A stretch of DNA of 32,000 bases from Pseudanabaenales cyanobacterium (GTDB lineage: Bacteria; Cyanobacteriota; Cyanobacteriia; Pseudanabaenales; Pseudanabaenaceae). A program made the translations under genes and the position numbers. Location: the NCBI GenBank assembly GCA_038230875.1, contig JBBRMK010000008.1:18815-50814 (forward strand). Reading direction: 5' to 3'. The notes beneath the pieces are model-generated. The model did not search any database, had not been told where the DNA came from, and saw only the letters and a program-made list of their open reading frames with translations. Positions 8,417-29,805 of the stretch are shown here, one piece after another (within the stretch, counting starts at the first letter, position 1; each line of letters opens with the position of its first letter).

Positions 8417-8486
8417 AATAAAGCGATCGCCCCAACCCTTATCTCCAAAATTTTACACAACAGCGATCGACCTCCCTACAACATGT
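8417..8486 (+). repeat. Solo copy of the 67-68-bp HIP1-containing repeat unit
   Basis: aaagcgatcgccccaacccttatctccaaaattttacacaacagcgatcgacc matches the units tandemly repeated at 9139-9430. Confidence 0.8.
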
Positions 8487-9138: not shown

Positions 9139-9430
9139 AAATTAAATGCGATCGCTCCAACCCTCATCTCCAAAATTTCGCATAACAGCGATCGCCCCAT
9201 AAACATATCAAAAAGCGATCGCCCCAACCCTCATCTCCAAAATCTCGCATAACAGCGATCGCCCCTTAAAAACCTCAAAAAAGCGATCATCCCAACCCTC
9301 AACTTCCAAAATCCTACACAACACCGATTGCCACATAATCACCCAAAAAAGCGATCACCCCAACTTTCATCTTCTAAATTTTACATAATAGCGATCGCGA
9401 CATAAATACATTAAAAAGTGATCACTAATA
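9139..9430 (+). repeat. Tandem array of about 4.3 copies of a 67-68-bp unit
   Basis: Units start at about 9139, 9210, 9277, 9345 and 9413 (partial). The consensus is aaaaagcgatcgccccaaccctcatctccaaaatctcgcataacagcgatcgcccc..aaa. Copies degrade progressively 5' to 3', and the HIP1 sites are lost in units 3-5. Confidence 0.9.
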
Positions 9431-9937
9431 TATTTACTGATAATCCAATACAATTTAATCACTTCTTAATTGGCAGTAACAAAGATTTTTTGCGGAGCAG
9501 TTTTGATGAGAATGCAAAAGTCAGTTAATTGTGTCTGCAAAGAGTCTGTTATGATCGTGTTTTAATAGATTGTGGATAAGCTAACATTCAGCCTTTCGCT
9601 TCGCGATTGGATGATAAAGTAGTCTGGGATTTTTTACTTTAATTGCTCTGCTTGGCATCTGGCATGAAACTTTTTAATAATTTATCTGATTTATTCTATT
9701 TAAGCTTCTATCATCCCCAATATAATTATTACGAAGATTGCTATGAAGACAATGAAGAATTTGATGAGTATAGTAATACTATCTTGGAATTAAAAAATAA
9801 GGAAGAATATGTAATTAATTTCTTTCTTAAAGAATTTAGAAGTTTTCTAAGTGATGAAGATATAGCCATTGTTACCGTGCCATCTGGTAAATCCACTAAT
9901 ATATATTCAGGTATTCGTGAATTATCTAAAAGATTAG

Positions 9938-11010
9938 TTAGTTTATATACCAATTGGTCTTCAGGATGTTATGGTTCTCATTCTCGGTCTTCCAACGCGC
10001 TCTAGCTGATTCAACGACTTCTACAACATTGTCTGGAGCGATAGTGTGATTGGTGATAAACGCATTGTAATATACTACCGAACCATCTTTGGTATCTAGA
10101 ATCGTGAGTTCACACCAGTTCACCAGTAACGATGGTTGCTGGTCTCGTAATCGAATCTGATTCACAAATCGATAATTGTATATTTTTTGTGACTTTCTTT
10201 GCTTATATTTTGTGCTAAAACTTTGGACTCCTCCATTTTTGTCCAAGTATTCTAGCCACTCATATAACTGGGATGGCTAGATGCTAAACAGGTAAAGATA
10301 AAGTTCATAGCAGTATCTAAACAATGCTGACACATTGGCTGACGACTATAGAGATCGTCCCCTAAAAGCGTCACTGCTTGACCTTTAAACAGATGCCGAT
10401 GATGGCTAATCCAGCGTTTCGCGGCGGCTGTTTCACAATCTTGTTTGTCATGTCCATCTTGCGGTACAACCAATTCTGGTGGTAAAGATATTACTTCTTT
10501 ACAGTTAGGCGCTACGATCACTGGCAAAATCGCAGTGTGTGAGTATGTTACCTTGCCATTGCTATGGTTGCGAATACTACAACACTCACAGGAGATTTTT
10601 GCGGAACTATGATACTGGGTTCCATCCAAACAAATCAATAAGTTCCCACATAGTCTTTCGTAACTTTTTAGATGCTTTCCTAATTGTAGAAATTGATAAA
10701 CTCGCTCAAACACTCTGTTCAGGCTATTTGCCTTAATTAAATCAAGGATGTTCCGTGTTTGTGGGTCGCTTGGTATTTTCTCTAATCCAAATATACTTTG
10801 GACATTATCTTTACCCATTCGACTATACATTTGTCTTTGATGTTCTAAGAATGATTCGCATTGCATGAAGAACATTGAAAATGCGGCAAGCATCACATCA
10901 CTGACTTTATATTTTGTGGCTTTACTTGCCTCACGAGGATCTTTAATCTCACTGATCGTCTCGTGCAGAAACCCTAAAATAATACCGAAAATCAACACTA
11001 TTCGTTGCAT
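9938..11010 (-). mobile_element. Decayed IS remnant: DDE transposase gene (IS4/ISNCY-like), frameshifted and 3'-truncated
   Basis: Two ORFs (10252-11010 and 9938-10246) are in different frames. The second frame already reads SQLYEWLEYLDKNGG upstream of its listed start, so there is a single indel near 10262-10275. Homology ends after ARARWKTENENHNILKT (~9957), with no normal C-terminus. No terminal inverted repeats were identified. Confidence 0.65.
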
Positions 11011-12335: not shown

Positions 12336-12485
12336 TAGGACTTACGCAGAAATTGATTAAGCCCTCACCCCTAGCGCCTCTCCCGCAGGAGAGGGGAACA
12401 AGAAAAACAATATAATTTTGCTCCCCTTCTCCTGCGGGAGAAGGGGTTGGGGGATGAGGGGAAATTTACTTTGCGTAAGTCCTAT
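12335..12485. repeat. Palindromic MITE-like element, family 1, copy a
   Basis: The termini ataggacttacgca / tgcgtaagtcctat are perfectly complementary. The internal arms are agccctcacccc..ctctcccgcaggagagggg and ccccttctcctgcgggagaaggggttgggggatgagggg. A second copy in the opposite orientation lies at 16319-16466. Confidence 0.85.
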
Positions 12486-13871: not shown

Positions 13872-14008
13872 ATTATTTTAAAGTAATTTACAGCAAATCC
13901 CGAACAAAACCACCACTAGATTTTCATAAAAGTCTCATTTCGCGGAGCTTTTATGAAAATCTGGGTTTGGTTTGTTCTTAATCTGCTGTAAATTACTTTA
14001 AAAATCTC
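13872..14008. repeat. Palindromic MITE-like element, family 2, copy a
   Basis: The left arm taaagtaatttacagcaaatcccgaacaaaaccaccactagattttcataaaag is the inverted complement of the right arm cttttatgaaaatctgggtttggtttgttcttaatctgctgtaaattacttta. Related copies lie at 16083-16187 and 16583-16688. Confidence 0.85.
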
Positions 14009-16082: not shown

Positions 16083-16187
16083 TACAGCAGATTGCGAACA
16101 AAGAACGACAATATTTTCGTAAAAGCCCAGCTTTGCGGGGCTTTTACAAAAATCTGGGTTTGGTTTATTCTCAATCTGCAGTAAGAA
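16083..16187. repeat. MITE-like element, family 2, copy c (diverged)
   Basis: tacagcagattgcgaacaaag...aaaagcccagctttgcggggcttttacaaaaatctgggtttggtttattctcaatctgcagtaa aligns with 16583-16688. Confidence 0.7.
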
Positions 16188-16318: not shown

Positions 16319-16466
16319 GATGTTACGTGGAGCGAAAATTACCCCTCATCCCCCAACCCCTTCTCCCGCAGGAGAAGGGGAGCAAAACCCAAATTATTTT
16401 CTTGTTCCCCTCTCCTGCGGGAGAAGGGGTTGGGGGTGAGGGCTTTAGAAACTTCCACGTAACATC
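16319..16466. repeat. MITE-like element, family 1, copy b (inverted relative to copy a)
   Basis: The termini gatgttacgtgga / tccacgtaacatc are perfectly complementary. The interior acccctcatcccccaaccccttctcccgcaggagaagggg ... cccctctcctgcgggagaaggggttgggggtgagggct matches the reverse complement of 12335-12485. Confidence 0.85.
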
Positions 16467-16582: not shown

Positions 16583-16688
16583 TTACAGCAGATTGAGAAC
16601 AAACCCACCACTAGATTTTTTATAAAAGCCCCGCGAAGCGGGGCTTTTATAAAAAATCTGGGTTTGGTTTGTTCGGGATTTGCTGTAA
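16583..16688. repeat. MITE-like element, family 2, copy b
   Basis: ttacagcagattgagaacaaacccaccactagattttttataaaagccccgcgaagcggggcttttataaaaaatctgggtttggtttgttcgggatttgctgtaa is a near-perfect hairpin. Confidence 0.85.
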
Positions 16689-16810: not shown

Positions 16811-17105
16811 GGTACTTTTATTGTTAGAGATCACCTAAGGATCGCATTGTTGGTTTTGGTGAAGATTTTGTTGTGATTAAAATCAGTGTAAAAAACAACA
16901 ATATTCAAAAGAGAAAGAGTGCGGAGTATTGATTGGTTTGTCAGATTGAGTCACCTGTCTGCGTGCTTTCGTTAACGATTTACTTGAAGAGCGATCGCGA
17001 TGCTATTAGTGCATCGGAAGTCTTGGATATTTTGTCTTCTATCGCTTATGGTGAATAGGCGATCGCTAGCTTAAAAAATTACTTTCCTAGTTCGTTATTT
17101 TGTAA

Positions 17106-17227
17106 TGTTATGATCAATCTGATCCAAAGAAGTTTACGGTTGAGGCGATCGCGTAGAACAAGTTAGTGCAAGAAAAGTAAATGCTAATGGTGATGCTATT
17201 TTTAAGATCGCTCAAAGAGTTAATTAG
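17106..17227 (+). pseudogene. Internal-deletion remnant of the 153-aa tail-motif protein gene (module copy 1)
   Basis: The remnant keeps the upstream leader (taatgttatgat) and the stretch acggttgaggcgatcgc, which matches 19442-19456 of the intact gene. It then jumps to gtagaacaagttagtgcaagaaaagtaaatgctaatggtgatgctatttttaagatcgctcaaagagttaattag, which matches 19745-19819. The junction lies in a GCGATCGC site. The retained tail reads ARKVNANGDAIFKIAQRVN*. Confidence 0.7.
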
Positions 17228-17251
17228 ATTGCAAGGCTGGAGGTTAGAGAT

Positions 17252-17683
17252 ATGGAAGAGTTGTTAGAGCTTAAGGAATTGCTCATTGGCGGGAATATTT
17301 CTGATGCTTTGCTGTTGGTAGAGGAGATGACGGAGATGAGTAAGGATGACAAACTGAATAAGATTTTCAGTTTCAGTATTATCGTTCTACTGCATTTAAT
17401 TAAGCAATCTGCTGAAAAGCGATCAACGCGATCATGGGAAATGTCGATCTCTAACTCTTTAAAACAAATTCAGCGCTCCAATAAACGGCGTAAGGCAGGT
17501 GGGAACTACCTAATCGAAGCAGAGATAAGAGAAACTCTTGAGGATGCTTATGAAACTGCTTTAAATCAAGCTTCTTTGGAGGCGTTTGAAGGCAGATATG
17601 AGGTGTCGGCAATCGCGGCAATGGTCGATCACTCGGCAATTATTGACAAGGCGATCGCTCTAATTTCTAGTGGTGAAGCGTGA
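17252..17683 (+). CDS. DUF29-like helical protein, paralogue 1
   Basis: 143 aa and intact. The segment LVEEMTEMSKDDKLNKI..LLHLIKQSAEKRSTRSWEMSI..IQRSNKRR parallels the DUF29 pattern (LIEEIE.MGRSE...LL.HLLKW.....RS.SW...I...R.EI). The first 38 aa are nearly identical to paralogues 2 and 3. Confidence 0.6.
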   Translation: MEELLELKELLIGGNISDALLLVEEMTEMSKDDKLNKIFSFSIIVLLHLIKQSAEKRSTRSWEMSISNSLKQIQRSNKRRKAGGNYLIEAEIRETLEDAYETALNQASLEAFEGRYEVSAIAAMVDHSAIIDKAIALISSGEA

Positions 17684-17857
17684 GCTAGTCATAGATTACC
17701 CTATACTCGCGATGATATTAGTACATCGGAAATCTTGGATATTTTGGCTTCTATTTCTGATGATGAGTAGGCGATCACTATGTTTAGAAAATCGCTTTTC
17801 TGTTTTGTTATTTTGTAATGTTATGATTGTTTCCATTAAAGTTATAAAAATACGGCT

Positions 17858-18319
17858 ATGGCAGATCCTTTAACGGCTGAGGCGTTGGTGGTATTGGCGG
17901 CTTAGAAGTTTGTTGAGTCAAGTGCTGGAGAACTCGCTAAGAAATTTACGACTGAGGCGATCGCAAAGATTCCTGACCTATGACAGCAAATCAAAAATAA
18001 GTTACAGGGTAGATCTGCCAAGGTTGATGAGGCTTTGGTTAAGTTGGAATCGGGCGATCAAAGTGCCATTGATACAATTACCAAAAATCTCGATGTGGTG
18101 TTGGATGAAGATGAAACTTTTGCGTCACTGTTGCAAAAATTGGCTAAGGAAATTAATACAGGGAAAATTAGTCAAGTTGGTTTAAATGGTATTACTGCGA
18201 ATCGAGTAGCGGCGGAAATTGTACAAGATGCTAAGGGTGATCGCGTAGAGAAAATTGGTGCGAGGGATGTAAAAGCGACTGGCGATACGGTTTTTAAAAT
18301 CAAGCAAAATGTAGATTAG
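17858..18319 (+). pseudogene. Tail-motif small protein gene, module copy 2, with two in-frame stops
   Basis: The frame is collinear with 19358-19819 over its full length, but it has TAG at 17903-17905 and TGA at 17981-17983 (TGG in copy 3). The C-terminal tail is intact: IGARDVKATGDTVFKIKQNVD*. Confidence 0.8.
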
Positions 18320-18336
18320 GCTGCGAGGTTAGGAAT

Positions 18337-18768
18337 ATGGAAGAGTTATTAGAACTTAGAGAACTGCTGATTGGTGGCAATATTTCTGATGCTTTGCTGT
18401 TGGTGGAGGAGATGACGGAAATGAGCAAGGATGACAAACTAAATAAGATCTCTAGTTTTGCGAAGATTCTCCTTCTCCATTTAATTAAGCGTCAAGCCGA
18501 AGAAAAGACAACAAGATCGTGGGATGCTTCGATTGATAATGCGGTGTATGAGATTCAGAAAACTAATCGCAGACGGAAGGCTGGAGGTGCTTATCTTTCG
18601 GCTGAAGAGTTGAGGGAGGCGGTGGCGGATGCCTATAGGGTTGCCATGTCTGGCGCGGCGGCAGAAGCTTTTGGCGGTTGCTATACGGTCACGCAACTAG
18701 CGGCAATGGTCGATCGCTCTGCAATTATTGACAAAGCGATCGCTTTAGTTTTTGGCGGAAATGCGTGA
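18337..18768 (+). CDS. DUF29-like helical protein, paralogue 2
   Basis: 143 aa and intact, with the same architecture as 17252-17683 and 19844-20275. Confidence 0.6.
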   Translation: MEELLELRELLIGGNISDALLLVEEMTEMSKDDKLNKISSFAKILLLHLIKRQAEEKTTRSWDASIDNAVYEIQKTNRRRKAGGAYLSAEELREAVADAYRVAMSGAAAEAFGGCYTVTQLAAMVDRSAIIDKAIALVFGGNA

Positions 18769-18827
18769 ACTAACCACAGACTCCCTCATCCATCTAATAA
18801 CATTGAGACTATACTCATCGCGAAGAT

Positions 18828-19317
18828 ATGATTGCAGTGGAAGTCTTAAATATTTTGGCTTCTATTGGTAGGAATGAGAGAGCAGAATATGGTTCAAGGT
18901 TGTTAACTCGATTATCACGGGATTTGAAAACAGCTTATGGTAAAGGCTTTAGTCGTCGCAATGTTTTGGACATGCGCCGCTTTTATGTTAGTTATTCAAA
19001 ATGGCAGATGGTGTCTGCCAAATTAGGTTGGTTACATTACACAGAGCTTTTAGCTATTTCAGATGATTTGGCGCGATCGTTTTATGAGCAGCAATGCATA
19101 CGCGATCGCTGGAGTGTGAGGGAATTAAAGCGTCAGAAGGATTCGGCTTTGTTTGAAAGAGTTGCCATGAGTAAGGATCGAGCTGAGATTTTAGCTTTGG
19201 CTCAGAAAAGATAGAAAATCGAGTCAATTTTTTGTGTCGAGATATCAGCTTTATTTGCCTAATGTGGAAGTTCTGAAGCAGGAGTTAAGGCGGCTTTTGG
19301 ATGAGTGCGATCGCTAA
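18828..19317 (+). pseudogene. Decayed YhcG/DUF1016-type (PD-(D/E)xK nuclease family) gene: N-terminal domain plus C-terminal tail, core deleted
   Basis: The 128-aa ORF reads RAEYGSRLLTRLSRDLKTAYGKGFSRRNVLDMRRFYVSY...WLHYTELLAISDDLARSFYEQQCIRDRWSVRELKRQ, which looks like a DUF1016 N-terminal domain. After a stop, YQLYLPNVEVLKQELRRLLDE (19243-19317) resembles the family's C-terminal end. Short 5' fragments of the same gene recur at 16999-17057 and 17711-17770. Confidence 0.55.
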
Positions 19318-19319
19318 TG

Positions 19320-19348
19320 TTATGATTTAATTTCATCCAAGTTATAAA
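19320..19348 (+). promoter_or_regulatory. Putative sigma70-type promoter of the module (short or absent leader)
   Basis: TTATGA (19320-19325), a 17-nt spacer, then TATAAA (19343-19348), about 10 nt before the GTG start. The same taatgttatgat...gttataaaaata block precedes copy 2 (17813-17852), and its first part precedes copy 1 (17103). Confidence 0.3.
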
Positions 19349-19357
19349 AATATAGTT

Positions 19358-19819
19358 GTGTCAGATCCCATAACGGCTTCAATATTGGTAGGTTTGGCTG
19401 TTCAAAAGTTTGTGGAGTCAAGCGCGGGAGAACTCGCTAAGAAATTTACGACTGAGGCGATCGCAAAGATTCCTGAGCTATGGCAACAAATCAAAAATAA
19501 GTTGCAGGGCAAATCTTCCAAGGTTGATGAGGCTTTGGTGAAGTTGGAAGCGGGCGATCGCTCTGGTATTGATACTGTGACAAAAAATCTGGATGTGGTG
19601 TTGGATGAGGATGAGGCTTTTGCGAAACTGGTGCAAAAGTTGGCGCAGGAAATCAATTCAGGGCAAATTTTACAGGTAGGTTTAGAGGGAATAACGGCGA
19701 ATCGGGTCGCGGCGGATATTGTGCAGGATGCTAAAGGCGATCGCGTAAAGCAGATTGGTGCAAGGGATGTCAATGCGACTGGTGATGCTGTTTTTAAAGT
19801 TAAACAAACCAAAGATTAG
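19358..19819 (+). CDS. Small helical protein with hydrophobic N-terminal helix and C-terminal strand-like motif (candidate Bell/HeLo-like effector); module copy 3, intact
   Basis: 153 aa with a GTG start where copy 2 has ATG. The N-terminus is SDPITASILVGLAVQKFVESSAGELAKKF, the middle is helical and acidic, and the tail is GDRVKQIGARDVNATGDAVFKVKQTKD. No enzymatic motif is present. A 136-aa antisense ORF covers it but has no support. Confidence 0.65.
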   Translation: MSDPITASILVGLAVQKFVESSAGELAKKFTTEAIAKIPELWQQIKNKLQGKSSKVDEALVKLEAGDRSGIDTVTKNLDVVLDEDEAFAKLVQKLAQEINSGQILQVGLEGITANRVAADIVQDAKGDRVKQIGARDVNATGDAVFKVKQTKD

Positions 19820-19843
19820 GCTGCAAAGCTAGAGGTCGAAGCT

Positions 19844-20275
19844 ATGGAAGAGTTATTAGAATTACGGACATTGCTGATTGGTGGCAATGTCTCCGATGCT
19901 TTGTTATTGGTGGAGGAGATGACTGAGATGAGTAAGGATGACAAGCTGAATAAAATTTATAGCTTTGCAAAAGTCTTATTACTTCATCTCATCAAACAAC
20001 AAGCGGAAAATCGCACTACAAGGTCATGGGATCTGTCAATCAAAAATGCGGTAAGGGAAATTCAGCGAACCAATCAACGACGTAAGGCTAAAGGAAATTA
20101 TTGCGAACCTTCAGAACTACGAGAGACCTTGAAAGATGCCTATGACATTGCTTTAGATTTGGCTGCTACTGAGGCGTTTGGTGGACATTATGAATCGGCG
20201 GAGTTGGGTGCGATGGTCGATCGCGATCGCATAATTCAAAAGGCGATCGCTTTAATTTCTGGAGATAATGTGTGA
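19844..20275 (+). CDS. DUF29-like helical protein, paralogue 3, translationally coupled to the NB-ARC gene
   Basis: 143 aa. Its stop TGA (20273-20275) overlaps the GTG start (20272-20274) of the next gene within GTGTGA. Confidence 0.6.
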   Translation: MEELLELRTLLIGGNVSDALLLVEEMTEMSKDDKLNKIYSFAKVLLLHLIKQQAENRTTRSWDLSIKNAVREIQRTNQRRKAKGNYCEPSELRETLKDAYDIALDLAATEAFGGHYESAELGAMVDRDRIIQKAIALISGDNV

Positions 20276-22254
20276 GCGAACAGCAAATTAATCAAACAGG
20301 ATTTAAAGATGTCTCGGTTGGTGGTAATCTCACTGCCAATCTTGATCAAAGCGTCAATAAAACGGTTATTCATCAAGCTCCAAAATCCTATCAGCCAATT
20401 CCTGATAACCTGCGGCAGGGTTCCAAAAACTTTGTGGGACGAGAGGAGGAACTTGCGGATATTCATACAAAACTGCAAGAGGGTCAGGGTGTGATCGTCT
20501 GTGCGGTGGAGGGGATGGGCGGTGTCGGTAAGACGGAACTGGCGCTGCAATATGCAAATCGCTATCAACAGGAATATGTGGCGCGGTATTGGTTGTCCTT
20601 GCGGGAGATGGGATTAGCTCAAGCATTGGTAACAATGGCTAGTCCTTATCTTGATTTACCCGAATCGATGCAGTCGGCAAGTCTAGAGGAACAAGCAGCA
20701 TGGTGTTGGCAAAACTGGTTGCCTGAGGCTGACAAGTTATTAGTGATTCTCGATGATGTGCCGAGGGCGGAGAGTATTCCTGATCTGGCGATGCCCATCG
20801 ATCCGCGTGTACGGGTATTGGTGACAACGCGAGAACGGGAATTGAATGTGGGTTTTGAGTCTGTGCCTCTGGATGTGCTGTCAGAGGAGAAGTCTCTGGA
20901 ACTGTTAAGAAAAATAGTTGGCGTGGCAAAGGTTGAGAAGGAACTCGTCACGGTTAAGGAGATTTGCAACACTTTGGGCTATTTGCCCTTGGGTATCGAG
21001 TTAATCGGTGAATATCTGAGCAAAAATCGTCATCTGACTTTTGCCAAGTTACAAGAAAAGTTACATCTTGCCGATGAGTCAATTTCACGCGATCGCAAAG
21101 GTAAGTTTTATGGCTATCGTGGTGTGGAGGCAGCAATCCAACTGAGTTGGGATGACATCAATACTGGCTCTCAGGGAGTGGCGATGTTGTTGGGGCTGTT
21201 TGCGCCTGTGGAGATTTTGTGGGAGTTGGTGGCAGCAATTGGAGCAAAAGCCAAAATTACGGAAGATGAACTGAATGAGGCAAGAGGACAGTTAGACAGT
21301 TTGCATTTGATGCAACCTGTTGATGATGAATGCAACTTTTATAAGATTCATACGGTAGTCCGCGAGTTCTTTCGTGCCAAGCTATTAAAAGCTGAAGAGA
21401 ATCATCAGTTTCGGCAAGCATTTGTGACTGGTTTACTGACAATTGCTAAAATGATACCCTCATCGCCAACGAGAGTTTTGATTGCATCGGTAGCTCCTGC
21501 TATTCCTCATTTGGATATGCTGAGTCGCGAGATGCTGGATGATATTCCTAACCCTGATGAAAATAACAATTTGGTTTGGGCATTTTTAGGAACTGCGAAA
21601 TTTTATGAAGGACAAGGACTATACGCATTAGCCGAAGATTCTTCTCAAAGATGTTTGACTTCTGTTCGAGAACTGTTAGGAGATCGCCATCCCATTGTCG
21701 CCATTAGTATCAACAACCTCGCAGCGCTGTACGATTTGCAAGGGAGATATGCAGAAGCAGAACCACTCTATCAAGAGGCGATGCAGTTGATGCGAGAACT
21801 GTTAGGAGATCGCCATCCCGATGTCGCCACCAGTCTCAACAACCTCGCAGGGTTGTACGAGTCTCAAGGGAGATATGCAGAAGCAGAACCACTGTATCAA
21901 CAAGCCCTCGCTTTGAGGCAAGAACTGTTAGGCGATCGCCATCCCGATGTCGCCATTAGTTTCAACAACCTCGCATTGCTATACCATTTGCAAGAGAGAT
22001 ATACAGAAGCCGAGCCACTCTATCAACAAGCCCTCGCTTTGAGGCAAGAACTATTAGGCAATCGCCATCCCTCTGTCGCTGGAAGTTTGTTTAATCTAGC
22101 GGGGCTTTATTACCAGATGCAAAGATATTCCGAAGCGATGATTTTGATTCAGAGAGCGATTCAGATTTATCAGCAAACCCTCGGCAACGATCATCCAAAT
22201 ACCAAAGCCGCTATGAGTTGGCTACAACCGATCAAGGAAAAAGTAGAAAGGTAA
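20272..22254 (+). CDS. STAND NTPase: short N-terminal motif + NB-ARC domain + TPR (kinesin-light-chain-type) repeats
   Basis: 660 aa. Walker A is GMGGVGKT (20512-20535), Walker B is LLVILDDV, then VLVTTRE and the GLPL-like GYLPLGIEL. The C-terminus has 5-6 TPRs of the LGDRHPDVATSLNNLAGLYESQGRYAEAEPLYQQAL type. Only ~55 aa precede the NTPase domain. Confidence 0.85.
   Translation: MSEQQINQTGFKDVSVGGNLTANLDQSVNKTVIHQAPKSYQPIPDNLRQGSKNFVGREEELADIHTKLQEGQGVIVCAVEGMGGVGKTELALQYANRYQQEYVARYWLSLREMGLAQALVTMASPYLDLPESMQSASLEEQAAWCWQNWLPEADKLLVILDDVPRAESIPDLAMPIDPRVRVLVTTRERELNVGFESVPLDVLSEEKSLELLRKIVGVAKVEKELVTVKEICNTLGYLPLGIELIGEYLSKNRHLTFAKLQEKLHLADESISRDRKGKFYGYRGVEAAIQLSWDDINTGSQGVAMLLGLFAPVEILWELVAAIGAKAKITEDELNEARGQLDSLHLMQPVDDECNFYKIHTVVREFFRAKLLKAEENHQFRQAFVTGLLTIAKMIPSSPTRVLIASVAPAIPHLDMLSREMLDDIPNPDENNNLVWAFLGTAKFYEGQGLYALAEDSSQRCLTSVRELLGDRHPIVAISINNLAALYDLQGRYAEAEPLYQEAMQLMRELLGDRHPDVATSLNNLAGLYESQGRYAEAEPLYQQALALRQELLGDRHPDVAISFNNLALLYHLQERYTEAEPLYQQALALRQELLGNRHPSVAGSLFNLAGLYYQMQRYSEAMILIQRAIQIYQQTLGNDHPNTKAAMSWLQPIKEKVER
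21670..22173 (+). repeat. Four tandem 126-bp (42-aa) TPR-coding units with high nucleotide identity
   Basis: Unit starts (gaactgttagg/gaactattagg) are at 21670, 21796, 21922 and 22048. Long identical runs such as gatcgccatcccgatgtcgcc and agatatgcagaagcagaaccact are shared between units. Confidence 0.9.
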
Positions 22255-22267
22255 AAGTTAAAAGGAA

Positions 22268-22681
22268 ATGGCAAAAGATTTATTTCATGATGCAGTCAAA
22301 AATGCCCTAATCAAAGATGGTTGGCAGATTACTGATGACCCATTCTTCTTGAAAGTTGGAGGTGTTGAACTTTATATCGATCTAGGAGCCGAAAAACTCA
22401 TTGCCGCCGAACGCAATAATGAAAAAATCGCCGTAGAGATCAAAAGTTTTATCAATCCTTCATCGCTAACGGACTTTCATCTAGCGATCGGACAATTTCT
22501 TAACTATCGAGTAGCATTAAAAGCAAGAGAGCCAGAACGCAAACTATTTTTAGCAGTTCCAAATACTGCCTACGCCAGCTTTTTCCAAAAAGAGTTTGCC
22601 TATATGGTTATTGCTGAATATCAATTGGAAATTTTTGTTTACGATATCGAAAATGAGGTAATTGTCACATGGAAAATCTAG
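22268..22681 (+). CDS. xisH: XisH family protein (fdxN-element excision controlling factor-like)
   Basis: MAKDLFHDAVKNALIKDGWQITDDP...IAAERNNEKIAVEIKSF closely follows the Anabaena XisH pattern. It starts 13 nt after the NB-ARC gene stop. Confidence 0.85.
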   Translation: MAKDLFHDAVKNALIKDGWQITDDPFFLKVGGVELYIDLGAEKLIAAERNNEKIAVEIKSFINPSSLTDFHLAIGQFLNYRVALKAREPERKLFLAVPNTAYASFFQKEFAYMVIAEYQLEIFVYDIENEVIVTWKI

Positions 22682-23013
22682 AAAAAATTGCTAAATATCG
22701 CACCATCATCAAAGAGATTTTGGGACACTATGCCTCCTATAAACCCTCTCATGGCGAGATCGAGATCCAGTTTCTATCGGATACAGAACATGATCACTAT
22801 CAAGTATTAGGTGTGGGATGGGATCAAAAAACACGAGTTTACGGTTGTTCCATGCACTTAGATATTAAAAATGGCAAAATTTGGATTCAAATCAACAATA
22901 CCGAACTTGATATTGGTCAAGCCTTAGTCGAAAAGGGTGTGCCAAAAGAAGATATTGTCATCGGTTTTCAGCCCGTTTATATTCGCCAAGTTTCAGGCTA
23001 TGCGATCGCCTAA
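22669..23013 (+). CDS. xisI: XisI family protein, copy 1
   Basis: 114 aa with YGCSMHLDIKNGKIWIQINNTELDIGQALVEKGVPKEDIVIGF. It overlaps xisH by 13 nt. Confidence 0.85.
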   Translation: MENLEKIAKYRTIIKEILGHYASYKPSHGEIEIQFLSDTEHDHYQVLGVGWDQKTRVYGCSMHLDIKNGKIWIQINNTELDIGQALVEKGVPKEDIVIGFQPVYIRQVSGYAIA

Positions 23014-23026
23014 CCACCGCAAAAAT

Positions 23027-23049
23027 ACATCCGTAATTTTTAAAGCAGC
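23027..23049 (+). repeat. Intercassette motif A, copy 1
   Basis: acatccgtaatttttaaagcagc. Related copies start at 23885, 24248 and 25150. Confidence 0.7.
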
Positions 23050-24762: not shown

Positions 24763-24791
24763 TCACAAAAGAGATATGAGGTGATTGTCAC

Positions 24792-25136
24792 ATGGAAAAT
24801 CTAGAAAAAATCGCCAAATATCGCACCATCATCAAAGAGATTTTGGGACACTATGCCTCCTACAAACCATCTCATGGCGAGATCGAGATCCAGTTTCTAT
24901 CAGATACAGAACACGATCACTATCAAGTATTAGGCGTGGGATGGGATCAAAAAACACGAGTTTACGGTTGTTCCATGCACTTAGATATTAAAAATGGCAA
25001 AATTTGGATTCAAATCAACAATACCGAACTTGATATTGGTCAAGCCTTAGTCGAAAAAGGTGTACCAAAAGAAGATATTGTCATCGGTTTTCAGCCCGTT
25101 TATATTCGCCAAGTTTCTGGCTATGCGATCGCCTAA
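24792..25136 (+). CDS. xisI: XisI family protein, copy 2 (protein identical to copy 1)
   Basis: The 114-aa translation is identical to copy 1. There are 10 nucleotide differences, all synonymous third-position changes. Confidence 0.85.
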   Translation: MENLEKIAKYRTIIKEILGHYASYKPSHGEIEIQFLSDTEHDHYQVLGVGWDQKTRVYGCSMHLDIKNGKIWIQINNTELDIGQALVEKGVPKEDIVIGFQPVYIRQVSGYAIA

Positions 25137-25149
25137 TCATCGCAAAAAG

Positions 25150-25172
25150 ACATCCATAATTTTTAAAGCAGC
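25150..25172 (+). repeat. Intercassette motif A, copy 4
   Basis: acatccataatttttaaagcagc. Confidence 0.7.
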
Positions 25173-25327
25173 CTAGCAGAAACCCTCAACAATCCCGATC
25201 AAGTTCGTCAGAGCAATCTCGATCGCTCCGCCCTCCTATTCTCTAAATTCTATTCTTTTCCAAACGTCTACAAACCCAAAATATCTTTAAACTGCCAATA
25301 GTCGCTCAATTACAACTTGCCAGTTAG

Positions 25328-25474
25328 CACCCTTTGTTTTTCACCCATCACCAGAAATTTTAACTGTGGGCGATCCATTCGCGAATGTTATATTAGAAAT
25401 CATGATCAGGCTAAAAACTATTCCTATCTGCCTTAACCAGTAATGCGATAGGCAAAAAATAAAAGGAGAAAAAA
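25328..25474 (+). repeat. Cassette-boundary repeat B, copy 1 (core + long leader extension)
   Basis: The core is caccctttgtttttcacccatcaccagaaattttaactgtggg. The extension is gaatgttatattagaaatcatgatcaggctaaaaactattcctatctgccttaaccagtaatgcgataggcaaaaaataaaaggag, running up to the ATG at 25475. Confidence 0.85.
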
Positions 25475-25696
25475 ATGCTGACAAAAGCGCAAGTGATTCG
25501 GGAAATAGAAGATACTCCTGCATTTATGCTGACAGAGATATTTAACTTTATTCAATTCATGAAGTCTAAACAACCACAAATTGACTTTATGGAGTTTGCA
25601 GGTATCGCCGCCGATGCAGAAGACATTATGCAAGAAATTATTGAAGAAGCCGAAGCCAATCGTCAACTCGACCTACATAGAATGGATAGTCTATGA
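25475..25696 (+). CDS. Putative VapB-type antitoxin (DUF2281-like)
   Basis: 73 aa, MLTKAQVIREIEDTPAFMLTEIFNFIQFMKSKQ, with an ATGA overlap with the PIN gene. Confidence 0.55.
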   Translation: MLTKAQVIREIEDTPAFMLTEIFNFIQFMKSKQPQIDFMEFAGIAADAEDIMQEIIEEAEANRQLDLHRMDSL

Positions 25697-26097
25697 AAAA
25701 AGCACTGCTCGACACAAATATCATTTCTTATTTCTTGCGTGGGAACCCTTTAGTAGTCGAAAATTTCCGACTTTATCGACAACATTATTCCTATCTCTCA
25801 TTCTCAATCTTTACTTACTACGAAATCAAAAGCGGATTGCTCTACAAAGATGCTTAAAGACAAATGCAGCAATTTGAACGCCTCGCTGAGATAAGCGAAA
25901 TAATTCCCTGCGATCGCGAAATTGCCGATACCACCAGCCAAATTTACAACCATCTAAGAACGAGAGGCTTAGCAGTTGCTCCAATTGATCTATTTATTGC
26001 GGCTACGGCTGTATATTAAGATTACCGTCTAATTACAAACAACACAAAACACTTCCAAAACATTCCTGACCTCGATTATGCTGATTGGTCTCAATAG
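25693..26097 (+). pseudogene. vapC: VapC (PIN-domain) toxin gene with two in-frame TAA codons
   Basis: MKKALLDTNIISYFLRGNP...YYEIKSGLLYKDA*RQMQQFERL...APIDLFIAATAVY*DYRLITNNTKHFQNIP. The stops are at 25855-25857 and 26017-26019. The frame is otherwise intact to the TAG at 26095-26097. Confidence 0.8.
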
Positions 26098-26105
26098 GAA
26101 GTCAG

Positions 26106-26196
26106 CACCCTTTGCTTTTCGCTCCTCACCAGAAACTTTAACTGTGACGTATCAGCGCAAATGTTATATTAGAGCTTATGATTAGGCTAAAAACAA
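26106..26196 (+). repeat. Cassette-boundary repeat B, copy 2 (core + short extension)
   Basis: caccctttgcttttcgctcctcaccagaaactttaactgtgacgtatcagcgcaaatgttatattagagcttatgattaggctaaaaac. Confidence 0.85.
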
Positions 26197-26233
26197 TATG
26201 AACCAAGTCATTGGCAGTTAGGATGTAAATGAT

Positions 26234-26524
26234 ATGAATGAACTTAAACTACGCTCAAATCATCCCGAATCGATCAAAGAAATGATCGAAATTGACCTTG
26301 CCAAAAGACTGCAAAGCCTTGAAACAGGATTAGAACTTACCCAAATACGCCTCAAACACTTTGAAGCACAATATCAATGGTCAACTGAAAACTTTGTTAA
26401 TCTCTTTACCAACGATCAATTACAACACAGCCTAGAATTTGATGAATGGTTAGGAGAATCTTGGATATTAGAAAAATTGCAACAAAAGATAGCCATCATC
26501 AAGGAGATCGAATTTGTTGATTGA
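26234..26524 (+). CDS. Small helical protein, putative partner (antitoxin-like) of the DUF6516 protein
   Basis: 96 aa. It overlaps the downstream gene by 11 nt. I recognise no family. Confidence 0.45.
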   Translation: MNELKLRSNHPESIKEMIEIDLAKRLQSLETGLELTQIRLKHFEAQYQWSTENFVNLFTNDQLQHSLEFDEWLGESWILEKLQQKIAIIKEIEFVD

Positions 26525-26906
26525 CAACTATTTTGAGAGAATCAGAAGCATACTTGCCAACTCTCCAATCATCCAAAACTTTGAACTTGAGACAGAAAAG
26601 CGGACAGAGACCCTTGGTTTCATCAGAGGCAATGTCTATTTCCATGATGGTTCATTGCTACATATTCGAGAATTTGTCGATGTAGAGATAGCAATAGAAA
26701 GAGGCAAATATACCTATCAATACATGAGCAGCCAAGGCAATCTAATTTTTCGCTATGACAACGCTCCCCACCATCAAAAGCTTAATATACCGACATTTCC
26801 CCACCACAAATACGATCGCCACGAAGACAATATCATTGCTTCAGAAGCTCCATTACTAGAAACAGTTTGTCAAGAAATGGAGCAGATTATGAACCAAAAG
26901 CAATAA
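26514..26906 (+). CDS. DUF6516 / TumE-like protein
   Basis: 130 aa. FIRGNVYFHDGSLLHIREFVD...LIFRYDNAPHHQKLNIPTFPHHKY resembles the His-rich signature of that family, recalled from memory. Confidence 0.5.
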   Translation: MLIDNYFERIRSILANSPIIQNFELETEKRTETLGFIRGNVYFHDGSLLHIREFVDVEIAIERGKYTYQYMSSQGNLIFRYDNAPHHQKLNIPTFPHHKYDRHEDNIIASEAPLLETVCQEMEQIMNQKQ

Positions 26907-26946
26907 TTGACCGTAAATCTCTCCCATAATTCCAATTTGCTCCTCT

Positions 26947-27000
26947 ACCCTTTGCTTTTCGCCCGTCACCAGAAACTTTAACTGTGGGGTATCAGCGCGA
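26947..27000 (+). repeat. Cassette-boundary repeat B, copy 3 (core only)
   Basis: accctttgcttttcgcccgtcaccagaaactttaactgtggggtatcagcgcga. Confidence 0.85.
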
Positions 27001-27013
27001 TCGCGCCCTAACT

Positions 27014-27419
27014 TCAACCCAGCCAATTTTCCACAACCAAACTTTGCACATGCGAAAACTCACGCACATTAGCAGTAACAACCGTTAAACTCAAAGCTAA
27101 ACCATGCGCCGCAATCAGTAAATCATTCGCGCCAATCGGTATTCCCTCCCGTTCCAAATATGCCCGAATCTCAGCATAATGAAACTCAATTGGCGACTCA
27201 AGCGGCAACACTGCGATCGACTCAAGAATTTGATCCACTTGTTCCTTTAAACGCAGTGAACCATTTTTTTTCTGCCCCAAACCGCAACTCAGAAGTAACA
27301 ACAATACTCGTGCATATTCTAGCCTCATCAACTTCAGCAATACGTTGAGCAATTTCCCCAGATGGATGTTTCACCAAATCCGAGACGATATTTGTATCCA
27401 ACAGATAGAGATAAGTCAT
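27014..27419 (-). pseudogene. vapC: VapC (PIN-domain) toxin gene, frameshifted in a homopolymer
   Basis: The N-terminal part MTYLYLLDTNIVSDLVKHPSGEIAQRI..TSELRFGAEKK and the C-terminal part GSLRLKEQVDQILE..GANDLLIAAHGLALSLTVVTANVREF lie in different frames. The switch is at the T8 run (A8 on the coding strand) at 27264-27271. Confidence 0.8.
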
Positions 27420-27421
27420 AG

Positions 27422-27676
27422 CTAAAATTGAATATCATCAAGTGGAAGTAAGCCTTCGTCAACAGTAGGAAAATATTCATCAATATCTGGCAGAGTTGCC
27501 AACAATTCCAATAAAGATCTTTTCTTAAATGGCTCAATAATTAATCTCTCCCCATCCTTCCGAATCACCACATCATTACTAGGCATTTCAAAGGCATGAG
27601 GTATATTTAGAGTGTGATTGCGTCCATTATGAAATAAACGAACTTGATATTGACTAATCATGGTTTTCATTTTCAT
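27422..27676 (-). CDS. vapB: VapB antitoxin, AbrB/SpoVT-type
   Basis: ISQYQVRLFHNGRNHTLNIPHAFEMPSNDVVIRKDGERLIIEP. It ends 2 nt before the vapC start. The true start is probably the ATG at 27661. Confidence 0.7.
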   Translation of the reverse strand: MKMKTMISQYQVRLFHNGRNHTLNIPHAFEMPSNDVVIRKDGERLIIEPFKKRSLLELLATLPDIDEYFPTVDEGLLPLDDIQF

Positions 27677-27777
27677 CCCACCTGATAGTAGTAAAATCTG
27701 ACATTTAGTATAGCTTCATTAACTCGCTAATGGAGTAAAAAACAAACTGATTTGAAGCAATCTCATGCGGCTCCTGA

Positions 27778-27830
27778 ACCCTTTGCTTTTCACCCATCAC
27801 CAGAAACTTTAACTGTGGGATATCAGCACC
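27778..27830 (+). repeat. Cassette-boundary repeat B, copy 4 (core only)
   Basis: accctttgcttttcacccatcaccagaaactttaactgtgggatatcagcacc. It overlaps the last codons of the minus-strand DUF2442 ORF. Confidence 0.85.
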
Positions 27831-28126
27831 GTAACCTTACTAGCTAGATATCCCCACTTTTGGAACTTCTCTTGTAACTCAACCACATCTCGAAAAGCCA
27901 GAAAATAAAGATACTCAGGCGCAAAATCAACACCATTTATCCATCGAACCGTACCCAGTTCAGCATCAACTTCAAATCTTTGAAACAAGTCCAAATCTTG
28001 CAATGGTTTAAACACCTTGCCAGTCAAACTTTCAGACAAATCAGCAATACCATCACGACCATCATTAAATTTAATTTTAATCCTATAGCCACTAACGTAA
28101 TGAGCAGAAATGATATGCAAAAACAT
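27809..28126 (-). CDS. DUF2442 domain protein
   Basis: 105 aa, ISAHYVSGYRIKIKFNDGRDGIADLSESL..FQRFEVDAELGTVRWINGVDFAPEYLY. The last ~7 codons are read from repeat B4. Confidence 0.65.
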   Translation of the reverse strand: MFLHIISAHYVSGYRIKIKFNDGRDGIADLSESLTGKVFKPLQDLDLFQRFEVDAELGTVRWINGVDFAPEYLYFLAFRDVVELQEKFQKWGYLASKVTVLISHS

Positions 28127-28181
28127 AAACTTACTCCAAAGGACTAATAGATTGCAGTTCTTCTTGCTCGCGACAGAGTTC

Positions 28182-28388
28182 TCAATTTGCCATTAGCTCT
28201 ACCTGATGCAGATCGTGCCATTCCAAAACATGACGAAGCGCCCTTTTTGGAAATGTCCCAGTCACTATCCCTGTCTTGATTTCGACGGTGATCTCATATT
28301 TTCCATACCTCGCATGATAATGAGGTGGTAAATGATCGTTCCAGTAGAAGCTAATTACGATTCCTAGAAACCGACTGACAATAGGCAT
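28182..28388 (-). CDS. DUF4160 domain protein
   Basis: MPIVSRFLGIVISFYWNDHLPPHYHARYGKYEITVEIKTG. The listed ORF extends to 28430, but the family-typical start is the ATG at 28388. Confidence 0.65.
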   Translation of the reverse strand: MPIVSRFLGIVISFYWNDHLPPHYHARYGKYEITVEIKTGIVTGTFPKRALRHVLEWHDLHQVELMAN

Positions 28389-28485
28389 GGACTTGACAAA
28401 TAAGAAGCTAAGAACAACATATAGCCACATTTTAGCACCTTTTCTATCCTAAAATTATAGTGAAAATAATATTATAAGTAATCTA

Positions 28486-28624
28486 CTTTTCACCTATCAC
28501 CAGAAACTTAAACTGTAGGTAATCGGTGCGAATGTTATATTAGAAACCATGATCAGGCTAAAAACTATTCCTATCTGTCTTAACCAGTAATGCGATAGGC
28601 AAAAAACAAAAGGAGAAAAATAAA
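28486..28624 (+). repeat. Cascade-boundary repeat B, copy 5 (5'-truncated core + long leader extension)
   Basis: cttttcacctatcaccagaaacttaaactgtaggt is followed by gaatgttatattagaaaccatgatcaggctaaaaactattcctatctgtcttaaccagtaatgcgataggc, nearly identical to the copy 1 extension. Confidence 0.85.
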
Positions 28625-28846
28625 ATGCTAACAAAAGCACAAGTGATTTGAGAAATAGAAGATACTCCTGCATTTATGCTGACAGAGATATTTAACTTTA
28701 TCCAATTCATGAAGTCTAAACAACCACAAATCGACTTTATGAGATTTGCAGGTATCGCCGCCGACGCAGAAGACATTATGCAAGAAATCGTCGAAGAAGC
28801 TGAAGCCAATCGTCAACTTGACCTGCATAGAATGGATAGTCTATGA
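28625..28846 (+). pseudogene. Duplicate of the 25475-25696 antitoxin gene with an in-frame TGA at codon 9
   Basis: Collinear over 222 nt. CGG (25499-25501) is replaced by TGA (28649-28651). Most other differences are synonymous. Confidence 0.8.
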
Positions 28847-28870
28847 AAAAAGCACTACTCGACACAAATA
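28843..28870 (+). pseudogene. 5' stub of a vapC copy (first 9 codons only)
   Basis: atgaaaaaagcactactcgacacaaata matches 25693-25720. Homology then stops abruptly, 10 nt before the HEPN gene. Confidence 0.7.
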
Positions 28871-28879
28871 GAAACTTTT

Positions 28880-29275
28880 ATGCAAAATGATATTTGTTGG
28901 AAACAATGCTTTTACAACTATCAAAAAACACTCATTTATCTTACCAAATTCATCGAAAAAGGTGAACTAAACGAATTAGAAGAACAAGGAATAATTAAAG
29001 CCTTTGAGTACACCTACGAACTAGCATGGAATGTGATTAAAGACTACTACGAAGAACAAGGAGAAGTTAGCATCCAAGGCAGTCGAGATGCCCTGCGGTT
29101 AGCCTTTCAGCGTGGATTAATCGCCGATGGTAACAACTGGATGAAGATGATCAAGAGTAGAATTGCTTCAGTACATACCTATAATCTCGAAGTAGCCCAA
29201 CAAATTAATCAAGACATTCATGATATCTACTTTCAGCTATTTATCGAACTAAAAGAAAAGATGGAATCCCTATGA
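28880..29275 (+). CDS. HEPN-type nucleotidyltransferase substrate-binding protein (HI0074 family)
   Basis: 131 aa, WKQCFYNYQKTLIYL..GIIKAFEYTYELAWNVIKDYYEEQG..GSRDALRLAFQRGLI..W..MIKSRIASVHTY. Confidence 0.75.
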   Translation: MQNDICWKQCFYNYQKTLIYLTKFIEKGELNELEEQGIIKAFEYTYELAWNVIKDYYEEQGEVSIQGSRDALRLAFQRGLIADGNNWMKMIKSRIASVHTYNLEVAQQINQDIHDIYFQLFIELKEKMESL

Positions 29276-29649
29276 ATCAGTTTGGACTAAAACCCAAAGC
29301 GATCGCCGAGATCAATCAAATTTTTGCTGCCTATTCCGAAATTAGCAAAGCAATTCTCTATGGTTCTCGCGCCAAAGGAAATTATAAAAATGGCTCTGAC
29401 ATTGATTTAACTTTGATTAGCGATCGCCTCAATCATCGGTAACTACTCCAAATTCAACATCAAATCGATGACTTACTTTTACCATACTCCATAGATTTAT
29501 CAATCTTTAGCTCAATCGATAATTTACACCTAATCGAACATATTGATAGAGTAGGAATAACTTTTTATGAGAGAACTACGTCCTCTCTAAAACCCTTCAA
29601 AGCGATCGCTACCTCTAAATCCAGTATTTACTATTGCCGTTTTGATTGA
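29272..29649 (+). pseudogene. MNT-type nucleotidyltransferase (HI0073-like) with an in-frame TAA
   Basis: ATGA overlap with the HEPN gene. ILYGSRAKGNYKNGSDIDLTLISDRLNHR*LLQIQHQIDDLLLPYSIDLSIFSSIDNLHLIEHIDRVGITFYE, with the stop at 29440-29442. Confidence 0.75.
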
Positions 29650-29805
29650 TTTAGGCAGGGCTTAGGATTATTCAAAATGCTCGTACAGCCAAATCTAGTT
29701 TTATTACTACCTTAATCACTGCATAATAGAGATAAAACCAGTAAAGATAATTCTGCAAATTAAGTAGATTGTCTTGGTTAGATAGAGCAAGCAATTGAGT
29801 TAGAA

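Follow-up and report, generated by a model that had tools for sequence, protein, structure and literature searches.

In integrons, and in the integron arrays without an adjacent recombinase known as CALINs, co-oriented copies of a recombination site each accompany one small cassette, many cassettes carry toxin–antitoxin (TA) genes on either strand, and cassette order varies between strains; how such mobile cassettes arise and gain their recombination site is an open question. Tandem accretion at attachment (att) sites, as seen in cis-mobilizable and integrative mobilizable elements (CIMEs/IMEs) beside integrative and conjugative elements (ICEs), in staphylococcal cassette chromosome (SCC) and pseudo-SCC elements at rlmH and in the tycheposon arrays of Prochlorococcus, yields direct repeats that are copies of a target-gene segment, with recombinase-less elements in tandem and a stub of the target gene at one array end. 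In the pdif system of Acinetobacter plasmids, which uses XerC/XerD, small modules, often TA, lie between short conserved recombination sites in varied contexts, and behind rhs and cdiA coding-fragment repeats separate orphan two-gene toxin/immunity modules. All of these features have counterparts in the array described here, which occupies part of a 32,000-nt stretch of a Pseudanabaenales cyanobacterium (contig JBBRMK010000008.1; this whole stretch is called the window, and coordinates are positions within it unless a contig is named). Five co-oriented repeats of about 55 nt separate two-gene TA modules in the window, and the repeat is a fragment of a VirB4/TrbE-like ATPase gene that large conjugative plasmids carry.

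All five repeats lie on the plus strand and were recovered by a repeat finder combined with a mismatch search. Their cores, TCACCAGAAA(C/T)TT(T/A)AACTGT with 0–2 mismatches, start at 25348, 26126, 26966, 27797 and 28497, giving core-to-core spacings of 778, 840, 831 and 700 nt; none would be expected by chance (100 shuffles). Copy 1 spans 25329–25382 (core 25348–25367), with its right arm disrupted beyond +8, and copies 2, 3 and 4 span 26107–26160 (core 26126–26145), 26947–27000 (core 26966–26985) and 27778–27831 (core 27797–27816). Copy 5 (28482–28531, core 28497–28516) has lost its left ~15 nt, a truncation that also follows every DUF4160 cassette in other contigs. A prior sequence-only reading of this DNA had reported five co-oriented copies at these places, spaced by 778, 841, 831 and about 700 bp, the last of them truncated at its 5′ end, with one two-gene module in each interval and a repeat orientation independent of the strand of the enclosed genes. 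Those claims agree with the present measurements, and Pfam matches and intact homologs confirm that each of the four intervals holds one two-gene TA module. To that description can be added a sixth, remnant copy of the repeat and two more cassettes, both degraded, so that the full array extends over 25173–29577.

The core was searched for in one genome per species (596 Gb), a metagenome collection and viral contigs. Genuine copies occur only in Pseudanabaena/Pseudanabaenales contigs, comprising 12 of 15 genome stretches and 19 of 29 metagenome stretches; the remaining stretches, including the non-cyanobacterial L001, L009, L010, L016, L022, L024, L033, L035, L039 and L040, are armless chance matches to a 20-mer. 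About 50 copies were mapped by profile search of all contigs. They are co-oriented within each contig, and every genuine copy stands at the boundary of a TA cassette or array or inside the source gene. Across 30+ Pseudanabaena contigs of genomic and metagenomic origin, a recurring set of cassette types lies between copies of this repeat: minus-strand vapBC, an unknown protein with TumE, DUF2442/DUF4160, PBECR2/DUF2283, a plus-strand antitoxin with vapC, HEPN/MNT, a DUF4926-like gene and a 74-aa gene. The cassettes are compact, self-contained operons (0.67–0.85 kb), and every type keeps a constant length while its neighbours change, with 34 distinct junction types formed from 17 left and 13 right contexts. 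Arrays occur in one Pseudanabaena clade and occupy several chromosomal loci, the repeat site being present at no fewer than six unrelated loci. At one orthologous locus, four strains (L013, L020, L031 and L044) whose flanking NB-ARC/TPR gene is 90–97% identical carry differing cassette sets. These results support cassette-wise shuffling, in that cassette content and order vary between strains while the repeat persists, the outcome by which the sequence-only reading had proposed to judge its own claim.

That the repeat is a generic dispersed repeat or a miniature inverted-repeat transposable element (MITE) lying between genes by accident is scarcely credible. Short dispersed repeats abound in cyanobacterial genomes, and several other families occur in the window itself; yet all ~50 genuine copies of this repeat mark TA or array boundaries or the source gene, only chance 20-mers were found outside Pseudanabaena in the genomes, metagenomes and viral contigs scanned, and no terminal inverted repeats were found at the repeat copies. 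The boundary role claimed for the repeat stands. An origin as a phage or satellite attP was also considered and set aside, as the seven viral-contig matches all fall in one unrelated phage gene with a chance 20–24-mer. The exact 20–24-mer TCACCAGAAACTTTAACTGT[G/T]GGC is all that this freshwater phage gene family (L021, L034, L043, L049–L055) has in common with the core, and it was judged a chance match. Also rejected as an array member was a VapC homolog present in two genomes, one of them that of P. minima, since this repeat does not flank it.

The sequence-only reading missed the coding origin of the repeat. In contig L007 the repeat lies inside an intact 919-aa open reading frame (ORF) with neighbours of a type IV secretion system (T4SS) cluster, where its reverse complement encodes ADTPQLKFLVMGEKQRV, roughly residues 113–131. 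It corresponds to nt ~336–389, in the 5′ region, of a VirB4/TrbE-like ATPase gene, the repeat being a relic of 55–75 nt. Homologs of the 919-aa protein, ~915 aa long, number in the hundreds across cyanobacteria, and some have HerA/DUF87 and TraD/TrwB domains; the repeat-encoded segment is conserved in all these homologs, including the invariant L122, R129 and L133; the repeat was therefore derived from the gene, and not the reverse. The gene resides within a T4SS cluster in Phormidium tenue and on the complete plasmids pPg_05 of P. galeata and ABRG53a of Pseudanabaena ABRG5-3, and this cluster includes TrbI/VirB10, a coupling protein, topoisomerase, relaxase, MobC and CyRepA1. Identity of the window copies to the L007 allele is 90–96%, and is lower to the alleles of other plasmids. 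Judged from these sequence comparisons, the source is the VirB4/TrbE-type ATPase gene of large conjugative Pseudanabaena plasmids.

Many arrays are still attached to this gene. In L025, L036, L037, L041, L018 and L062, a truncated 5′ part of the ATPase gene and the upstream operon genes follow the last repeat on its right. The operon stub at array ends consists of genes for a helix-turn-helix (HTH) protein, a 231-aa protein, a VirB3-sized protein and the truncated ATPase; it is linked to no cassette in L025 and to a single cassette in L041. The T4SS cluster of L062 breaks off precisely at the repeat site and then gives way to foreign genes, with about 3.6 kb of unknown genes in place of the remaining ATPase gene and part of the downstream cluster. 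ATPase relics that are 75–79% diverged are found at the array ends of L004, L038 and L030 and retain the canonical core (with one mismatch in L030). The other arrays, including that of the window, have no ATPase stub and are located among housekeeping genes. Substitutions in the repeats comprise 17 synonymous and 44 non-synonymous changes (p = 0.15), and the other two frames give similar results. As there is no synonymous excess, the repeat copies evolve as non-coding DNA; the possibility that they were copied again and again from functional plasmid genes predicted such an excess and was rejected.

A plasmid origin could also be explained by integration scars. Plasmids would have integrated repeatedly via the ATPase gene into a chromosomal relic, after which the backbone was deleted and the addictive TA genes were kept, each cycle leaving a TA module and a gene fragment. 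The derivation of the repeat from a plasmid gene and the T4SS-operon stubs at array ends fit this account, as does the resistance of TA genes to deletion, which reflects addiction and post-segregational killing. However, the cassettes were not found on known plasmids, where only distant TumE homologs were seen (on Nostoc plasmids, outside arrays); independent deletions would not keep recreating compact units of 0.7–0.85 kb with the same boundaries and a shared leader; and the same cassettes occur in many orders. This explanation is considered improbable.

The array was also compared with a canonical integron array. Co-oriented sites, one small cassette per site, TA genes on either strand and permutation between strains would all suit a CALIN whose attC sites had merely gone unrecognized. 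But a regular-expression search of both strands of 25100–29700 for the attC box pair RYYYAAC...GTTRRRY found none, against 1.2 expected in shuffles. DNA folding of the five copies, on both strands, was no better than that of shuffled sequences (z −1.1 to +0.2). Covariation in the proposed stem was marginal over 44 distinct copies: double changes were confined to three cells, all singletons, up to 10 of the 44 copies lacked a standard pair at a given stem position, and only some measures exceeded shuffles. The sequence-only reading had proposed a selected hairpin with compensatory changes, a proposal that these results do not bear out; its remark that the repeat is not an obvious attC is upheld by the lack of both an R″/R′ box pair and a hairpin. 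Further, each arm of the repeat goes with its own cassette, whereas an integron site belongs almost wholly to one cassette, the site is a coding fragment, and no IntI-like gene was found near the arrays, either in the window or, by phmmer, in related contigs. An unrecognized CALIN is accordingly a very improbable explanation. Of the integron-like array first proposed, the cassette boundaries and the strain-variable order remain, and the attC site, the IntI gene and the hairpin do not. An RNA or hairpin interpretation of the repeat is excluded by that shuffle-level folding together with the window's lack of Rfam matches at gathering score and its empty tRNA and tmRNA scans.

The junctions themselves hold several clues to where exchange takes place. 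How far ATPase-derived sequence reaches on either side is characteristic of each cassette, and a stretch of about 46 nt surrounding the core is common to all. Each of the two arms segregates with the cassette next to it; left arms follow the left cassette, GCTATTC for instance occurring only after two left types. Differences affect 2.4% of positions in the 20-nt core, compared with 9–18% in the arms (9/380 vs 85/646; Fisher p = 5e-10), after correction for ascertainment by counting only copies whose contig another copy would have revealed, and the core is thus some 4–7 times better conserved. Just to the right of the core, positions +3..+8 are hypervariable, and a few haplotypes (GGGGTATC, GGGCGATC, GGGGTGTC and GGAGTATC) recur in many unrelated junctions, indicating that this patch assorts independently of both flanks. 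At four independent loci, half-sites were found in which unrelated DNA is joined 0–4 nt from the same point, X|TCACCAG. Three of the four share CCA microhomology, and two of the four are solitary 39–43-nt units ending at GCGATCGC, the HIP1 motif that is present throughout the window. Right boundaries recur at two HIP1 sites, at +19 and +64.

It is proposed that cassettes are gained, lost and permuted by recombination within the conserved core, and that a site-specific enzyme is responsible, a reading to which we assign a probability of roughly 0.45. The enzyme is favoured because of the conservation of the core, the clustering of half-sites, the presence of the site at ≥6 loci without prior homology and recombination with a diverged relic that retains the core. 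The recurrence of right boundaries at the two HIP1 sites and the break of the L062 T4SS cluster at the repeat site point the same way. The mobile unit would be a cassette plus one repeat. Recombination between two repeats would release it as a circle or delete the cassette, and insertion in a fixed orientation would follow when the unit recombines with another repeat or with the ATPase-gene site, by which co-oriented arrays could be built up. Exchange would occur in or next to the ~25-nt conserved core CCCATCACCAGAAACTTTAACTGTGG, catalysed by a putative trans-acting site-specific enzyme whose gene would lie on the plasmid or in another part of the genome. The TA content may stabilize the arrays, for loss of a cassette through repeat–repeat deletion should be toxic, so that, whatever the mechanism of exchange, the TA genes would protect the arrays from deletion.

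The main rival is general homologous recombination, in which the ATPase fragment is an arbitrary patch of homology and RecA crossovers with gene conversion suffice without a dedicated enzyme. Inside polyploid chromosomes, or following natural transformation, cassettes would be deleted, duplicated, circularized and re-inserted. The repeat is a structureless, asymmetric coding piece with neutral-looking substitutions (the synonymous and non-synonymous counts given above), and its homology arms are variable, reaching ~120 nt, all of which would be expected of such a process. However, homologous recombination cannot seed loci that have no repeat, and at least six unrelated loci carry one. Nor does it account for half-site junctions that cluster at one position or for a core so much better conserved than its arms, and with the 75–79% diverged relic only ~20–25 nt of identity would be available to it. 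We regard it as possible, though less likely than recombination by a site-specific enzyme.

Several observations weigh against such an enzyme, and some of them are equally points for homologous recombination. Exchange extends over a broad zone: between about −5 and +10, polymorphisms segregate without regard to either flank, and the 6-nt +3..+8 patch is mosaic, a pattern that fits short-patch gene conversion as well as heteroduplex in an overlap region. The centre-weighted gradient of conservation could itself stem from gene conversion, and the use of an exact-core search pattern biases which copies were recovered. No clear dyad symmetry or stable structure was found in the site. Next to the arrays neither a recombinase nor a transposase was found: the window yielded nothing of the kind except an IS4-like fragment, phmmer searches for a tyrosine recombinase among the six-frame ORFs of related contigs gave no match, and Pfam revealed no recombinase among 29 flanking proteins. 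What these searches returned were restriction-modification, STAND/NB-ARC, kinase/PP2C/VWA, housekeeping or unknown proteins. That no integrase lies nearby, as the sequence-only reading had stated for the window, was thus found to be true of the related contigs as well. Finally, long direct duplications surround TA modules elsewhere, namely a 397-nt xisI repeat in the window and a 90-nt repeat in P. minima, which hints at a generic duplicative process.

Relaxase/oriT-based mobility was considered in addition, as a core-like sequence, ATCACCGAAACTAACTGT, is present in the mobC-proximal intergenic region of the plasmid. This candidate was rejected; the match is not significant because other parts of the plasmid align with scores as good or better. 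In pPg_05 the intergenic region beside mobC (L058 33660–33790) contains iterated units of ~100 nt with the hairpin ACAGTTA-TCACYRAAAC-TAACTGT, which are probably the oriT or an iteron region of the plasmid and whose likeness to the core is not statistically significant either.

The window array combines intact and decayed modules. At its left end, a PBECR2/DUF2283 cassette remnant (25173–25328, +) has suffered an internal deletion and abuts copy 1 with its 3′ end; it aligns in two BLAST pieces with 93% and 90.5% identity to the intact cassette in L004, and the intact proteins match PF18810 and PF10049. Cassette 1 (25475–26097, +) consists of a 73-aa antitoxin-like ORF (25475–25696, +) and a pseudogene of PIN VapC that is interrupted by two in-frame stops (ORF pieces 25693–25857 and 25864–26019, +), of which an intact 134-aa homolog exists in L044. 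Cassette 2 (26234–26906, +) encodes an unknown 96-aa protein (26234–26524, +) and a TumE toxin, the current name of DUF6516 (26514–26906, +; PF20126, E = 2e-23). Cassette 3 (27014–27676, −) has a frameshifted PIN VapC gene (27014–27419) and an 84-aa antitoxin-like ORF (27422–27676), and its intact 134-aa VapC homolog (L004:152–556) matches PF01850 at 4e-18. Cassette 4 (27809–28430, −) encodes DUF2442 (27809–28126, −; PF10387 at 1e-14) and DUF4160 (28182–28430, −; PF13711 at 1e-17) proteins.

Beyond copy 5 lies a degraded duplicate of cassette 1 (28531–28872, +), comprising the leader, the antitoxin-like ORF, here interrupted by an in-frame stop, and the first nine vapC codons; it is a 90–97% direct repeat of 25381–25731 (families D5 and D15). 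The sixth repeat remnant, AGAAACTTT (28873–28882, +), is the middle of a core that is truncated on the right and fused to the start of the HEPN gene, and at the same junction contig L036 has the fuller form ...TCACCAAAAACTTT|TATGCAAAATG. A HEPN/MNT cassette (28880–29577, +; 92.6% identity to L036 over 706 nt) forms the right array end, with an NTase_sub_bind (HEPN) protein (28880–29275, +; PF08780 at 7e-36) and an MNT nucleotidyltransferase gene that has a premature stop (29272–29442, +, with homology continuing to 29577) and whose L036 homolog matches PF18765 and PF01909. With five genes reduced to pseudogenes (both copies of vapC and a truncated third one, the antitoxin of the duplicate, and MNT), this is a decaying array, and it is platform-less, ending beside obg among housekeeping genes with no ATPase-gene stub there.

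Copies 1, 2 and 5 alone are followed by a shared extension, AATGTTATATTAGA....ATGATYAGGCTAAAAAC, at 25384–25418, 26160–26194 and 28531–28565 (all +), the last of these being the start of the degraded cassette-1 duplicate; the three are exact pattern matches where none is expected. The sequence-only reading had noticed this segment and suggested a portable promoter or leader. Its restriction to these three copies was reproduced, and a portable promoter is plausible given the extended −10-like motif TGTTATATT that the leader of copy 1 contains; a consensus promoter scan, which needs a −35 element, did not list the TGTTATATT leader.

Directly left of the array is the xisI direct repeat, in copies of 397 nt at 22653–23049 (+) and 24776–25172 (+), the latter ending exactly where the cassette array begins. 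The two are 96.2% identical over 397 nt, each taking in the whole of xisI with the final 16 nt of xisH before it and 36 nt after it. They enclose three TA modules (Gp49/RelE-like with HTH; HicB-like; DUF2281 with ParE), and Pfam matches support XisH, XisI and ParE. On the Pseudanabaena minima chromosome (L059), 90-nt direct repeats at 9570–9659 and 10831–10920, 87% identical, enclose a vapBC homolog (86% protein identity) and a small gene. These repeats duplicate the 5′ end of a neighbouring 189-aa gene together with its promoter region, giving the same architecture of a TA module between duplicated gene fragments with a different fragment.

Arrays often lie just downstream of NB-ARC/TPR (STAND NTPase) genes, as in L013, L014, L020, L025, L031, L037, L041, L044, L006 and the window (20272–22254); these genes fall into several paralog groups and extend beyond the one orthologous locus. 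Directly upstream of the NB-ARC/TPR gene in the window, 16990–20300 is made up of three tandem units of 1.1–1.5 kb that are 61–83% diverged (D1, D4, D6, D11 and D13). All three have a DUF29-like 143-aa gene, and a partner gene of 94–153 aa is listed in two of the three. A 47-nt piece at a unit boundary (17739–17785) has 94% identity to the left junction of the foreign block in L062 (reverse-complement 491–537). Elsewhere in the window, 100-nt inverted repeats at 12368–12467 and 16336–16435, 88% complementary and each itself a GC-rich palindrome (CCCCTTCTCCCGCAGGAGAAGGGG), flank a 3.9-kb segment with a 402-aa ORF and a putative 450-aa membrane-protein ORF. Further long hairpin-forming elements are found nearby at 13876–14003, 16083–16183 and 16602–16670, and together with the inverted repeats they could represent MITE-like elements or mark where an invertible segment ends. 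An HIP1-rich tandem array of a ~67-nt repeat (D9, D10 and D12) covers 9145–9400, with one more copy 725 nt upstream, at 8420–8472. Adjacent ORFs of 102 and 252 aa at 9938–11010 (−), which we take to be an IS4-like transposase split by a frameshift or stop, are the only transposase-like sequence seen in the window.

No description of such arrays was found in the literature, and the type appears to be an undescribed variant of cassette or tandem-island arrays. A bolder possibility, which we hold to be doubtful, is a new cyanobacterial platform for cassette recombination in which TA cassettes would carry a virB4-derived "address tag" at which a dedicated enzyme inserts and excises them. Stub-linked arrays would then possess an attI-like tag, platform-less arrays such as that of the window would resemble CALINs, and cassettes could invade and disable, or ride on, a plasmid conjugation gene. 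Whichever mechanism applies, the boundary site here has a traceable origin in one particular 55-nt segment of a gene for plasmid conjugation, and intermediates are visible in the form of the intact gene, the gene broken at the site, stub-attached arrays and relocated arrays. If a dedicated enzyme exists, it would constitute an integron-like system acting on another kind of site and linking chromosomal TA islands to conjugative plasmids. If general recombination alone is at work, an arbitrary patch of ~55 nt with addictive cargo would be enough to generate integron-like arrays.

Compared with integrons and CALINs, the site here is a plasmid ATPase fragment devoid of R/L boxes, hairpin and extrahelical bases, exchange appears to be central, leaving each arm with its own neighbouring cassette, and all cassettes seem to bear their own promoter. 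The pdif sites are 28-bp sequences of 11-6-11 architecture in inverted orientation, whereas these repeats are direct and of ~55 nt, and on reading their core sequence no 11-6-11 (dif-like) dyad was seen. At rhs and cdiA the repeated fragment is in frame with the toxin and swaps C-terminal domains; here it is unrelated to the cassette genes, which lie on either strand. Tandem att accretion differs in that its units are islands of several kb and not single-operon cassettes; here the middle of a plasmid conjugation gene serves as target and insertion does not restore the gene, arrays also occupy loci without the target gene, and no integrase-bearing family member, and no cognate integrase of the tandem-att type, was found in the fetched contigs. 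Nevertheless, because the repeat is a fragment of a coding gene and arrays end in a stub of that gene, these arrays look more like tandem att-site islands than like an integron.

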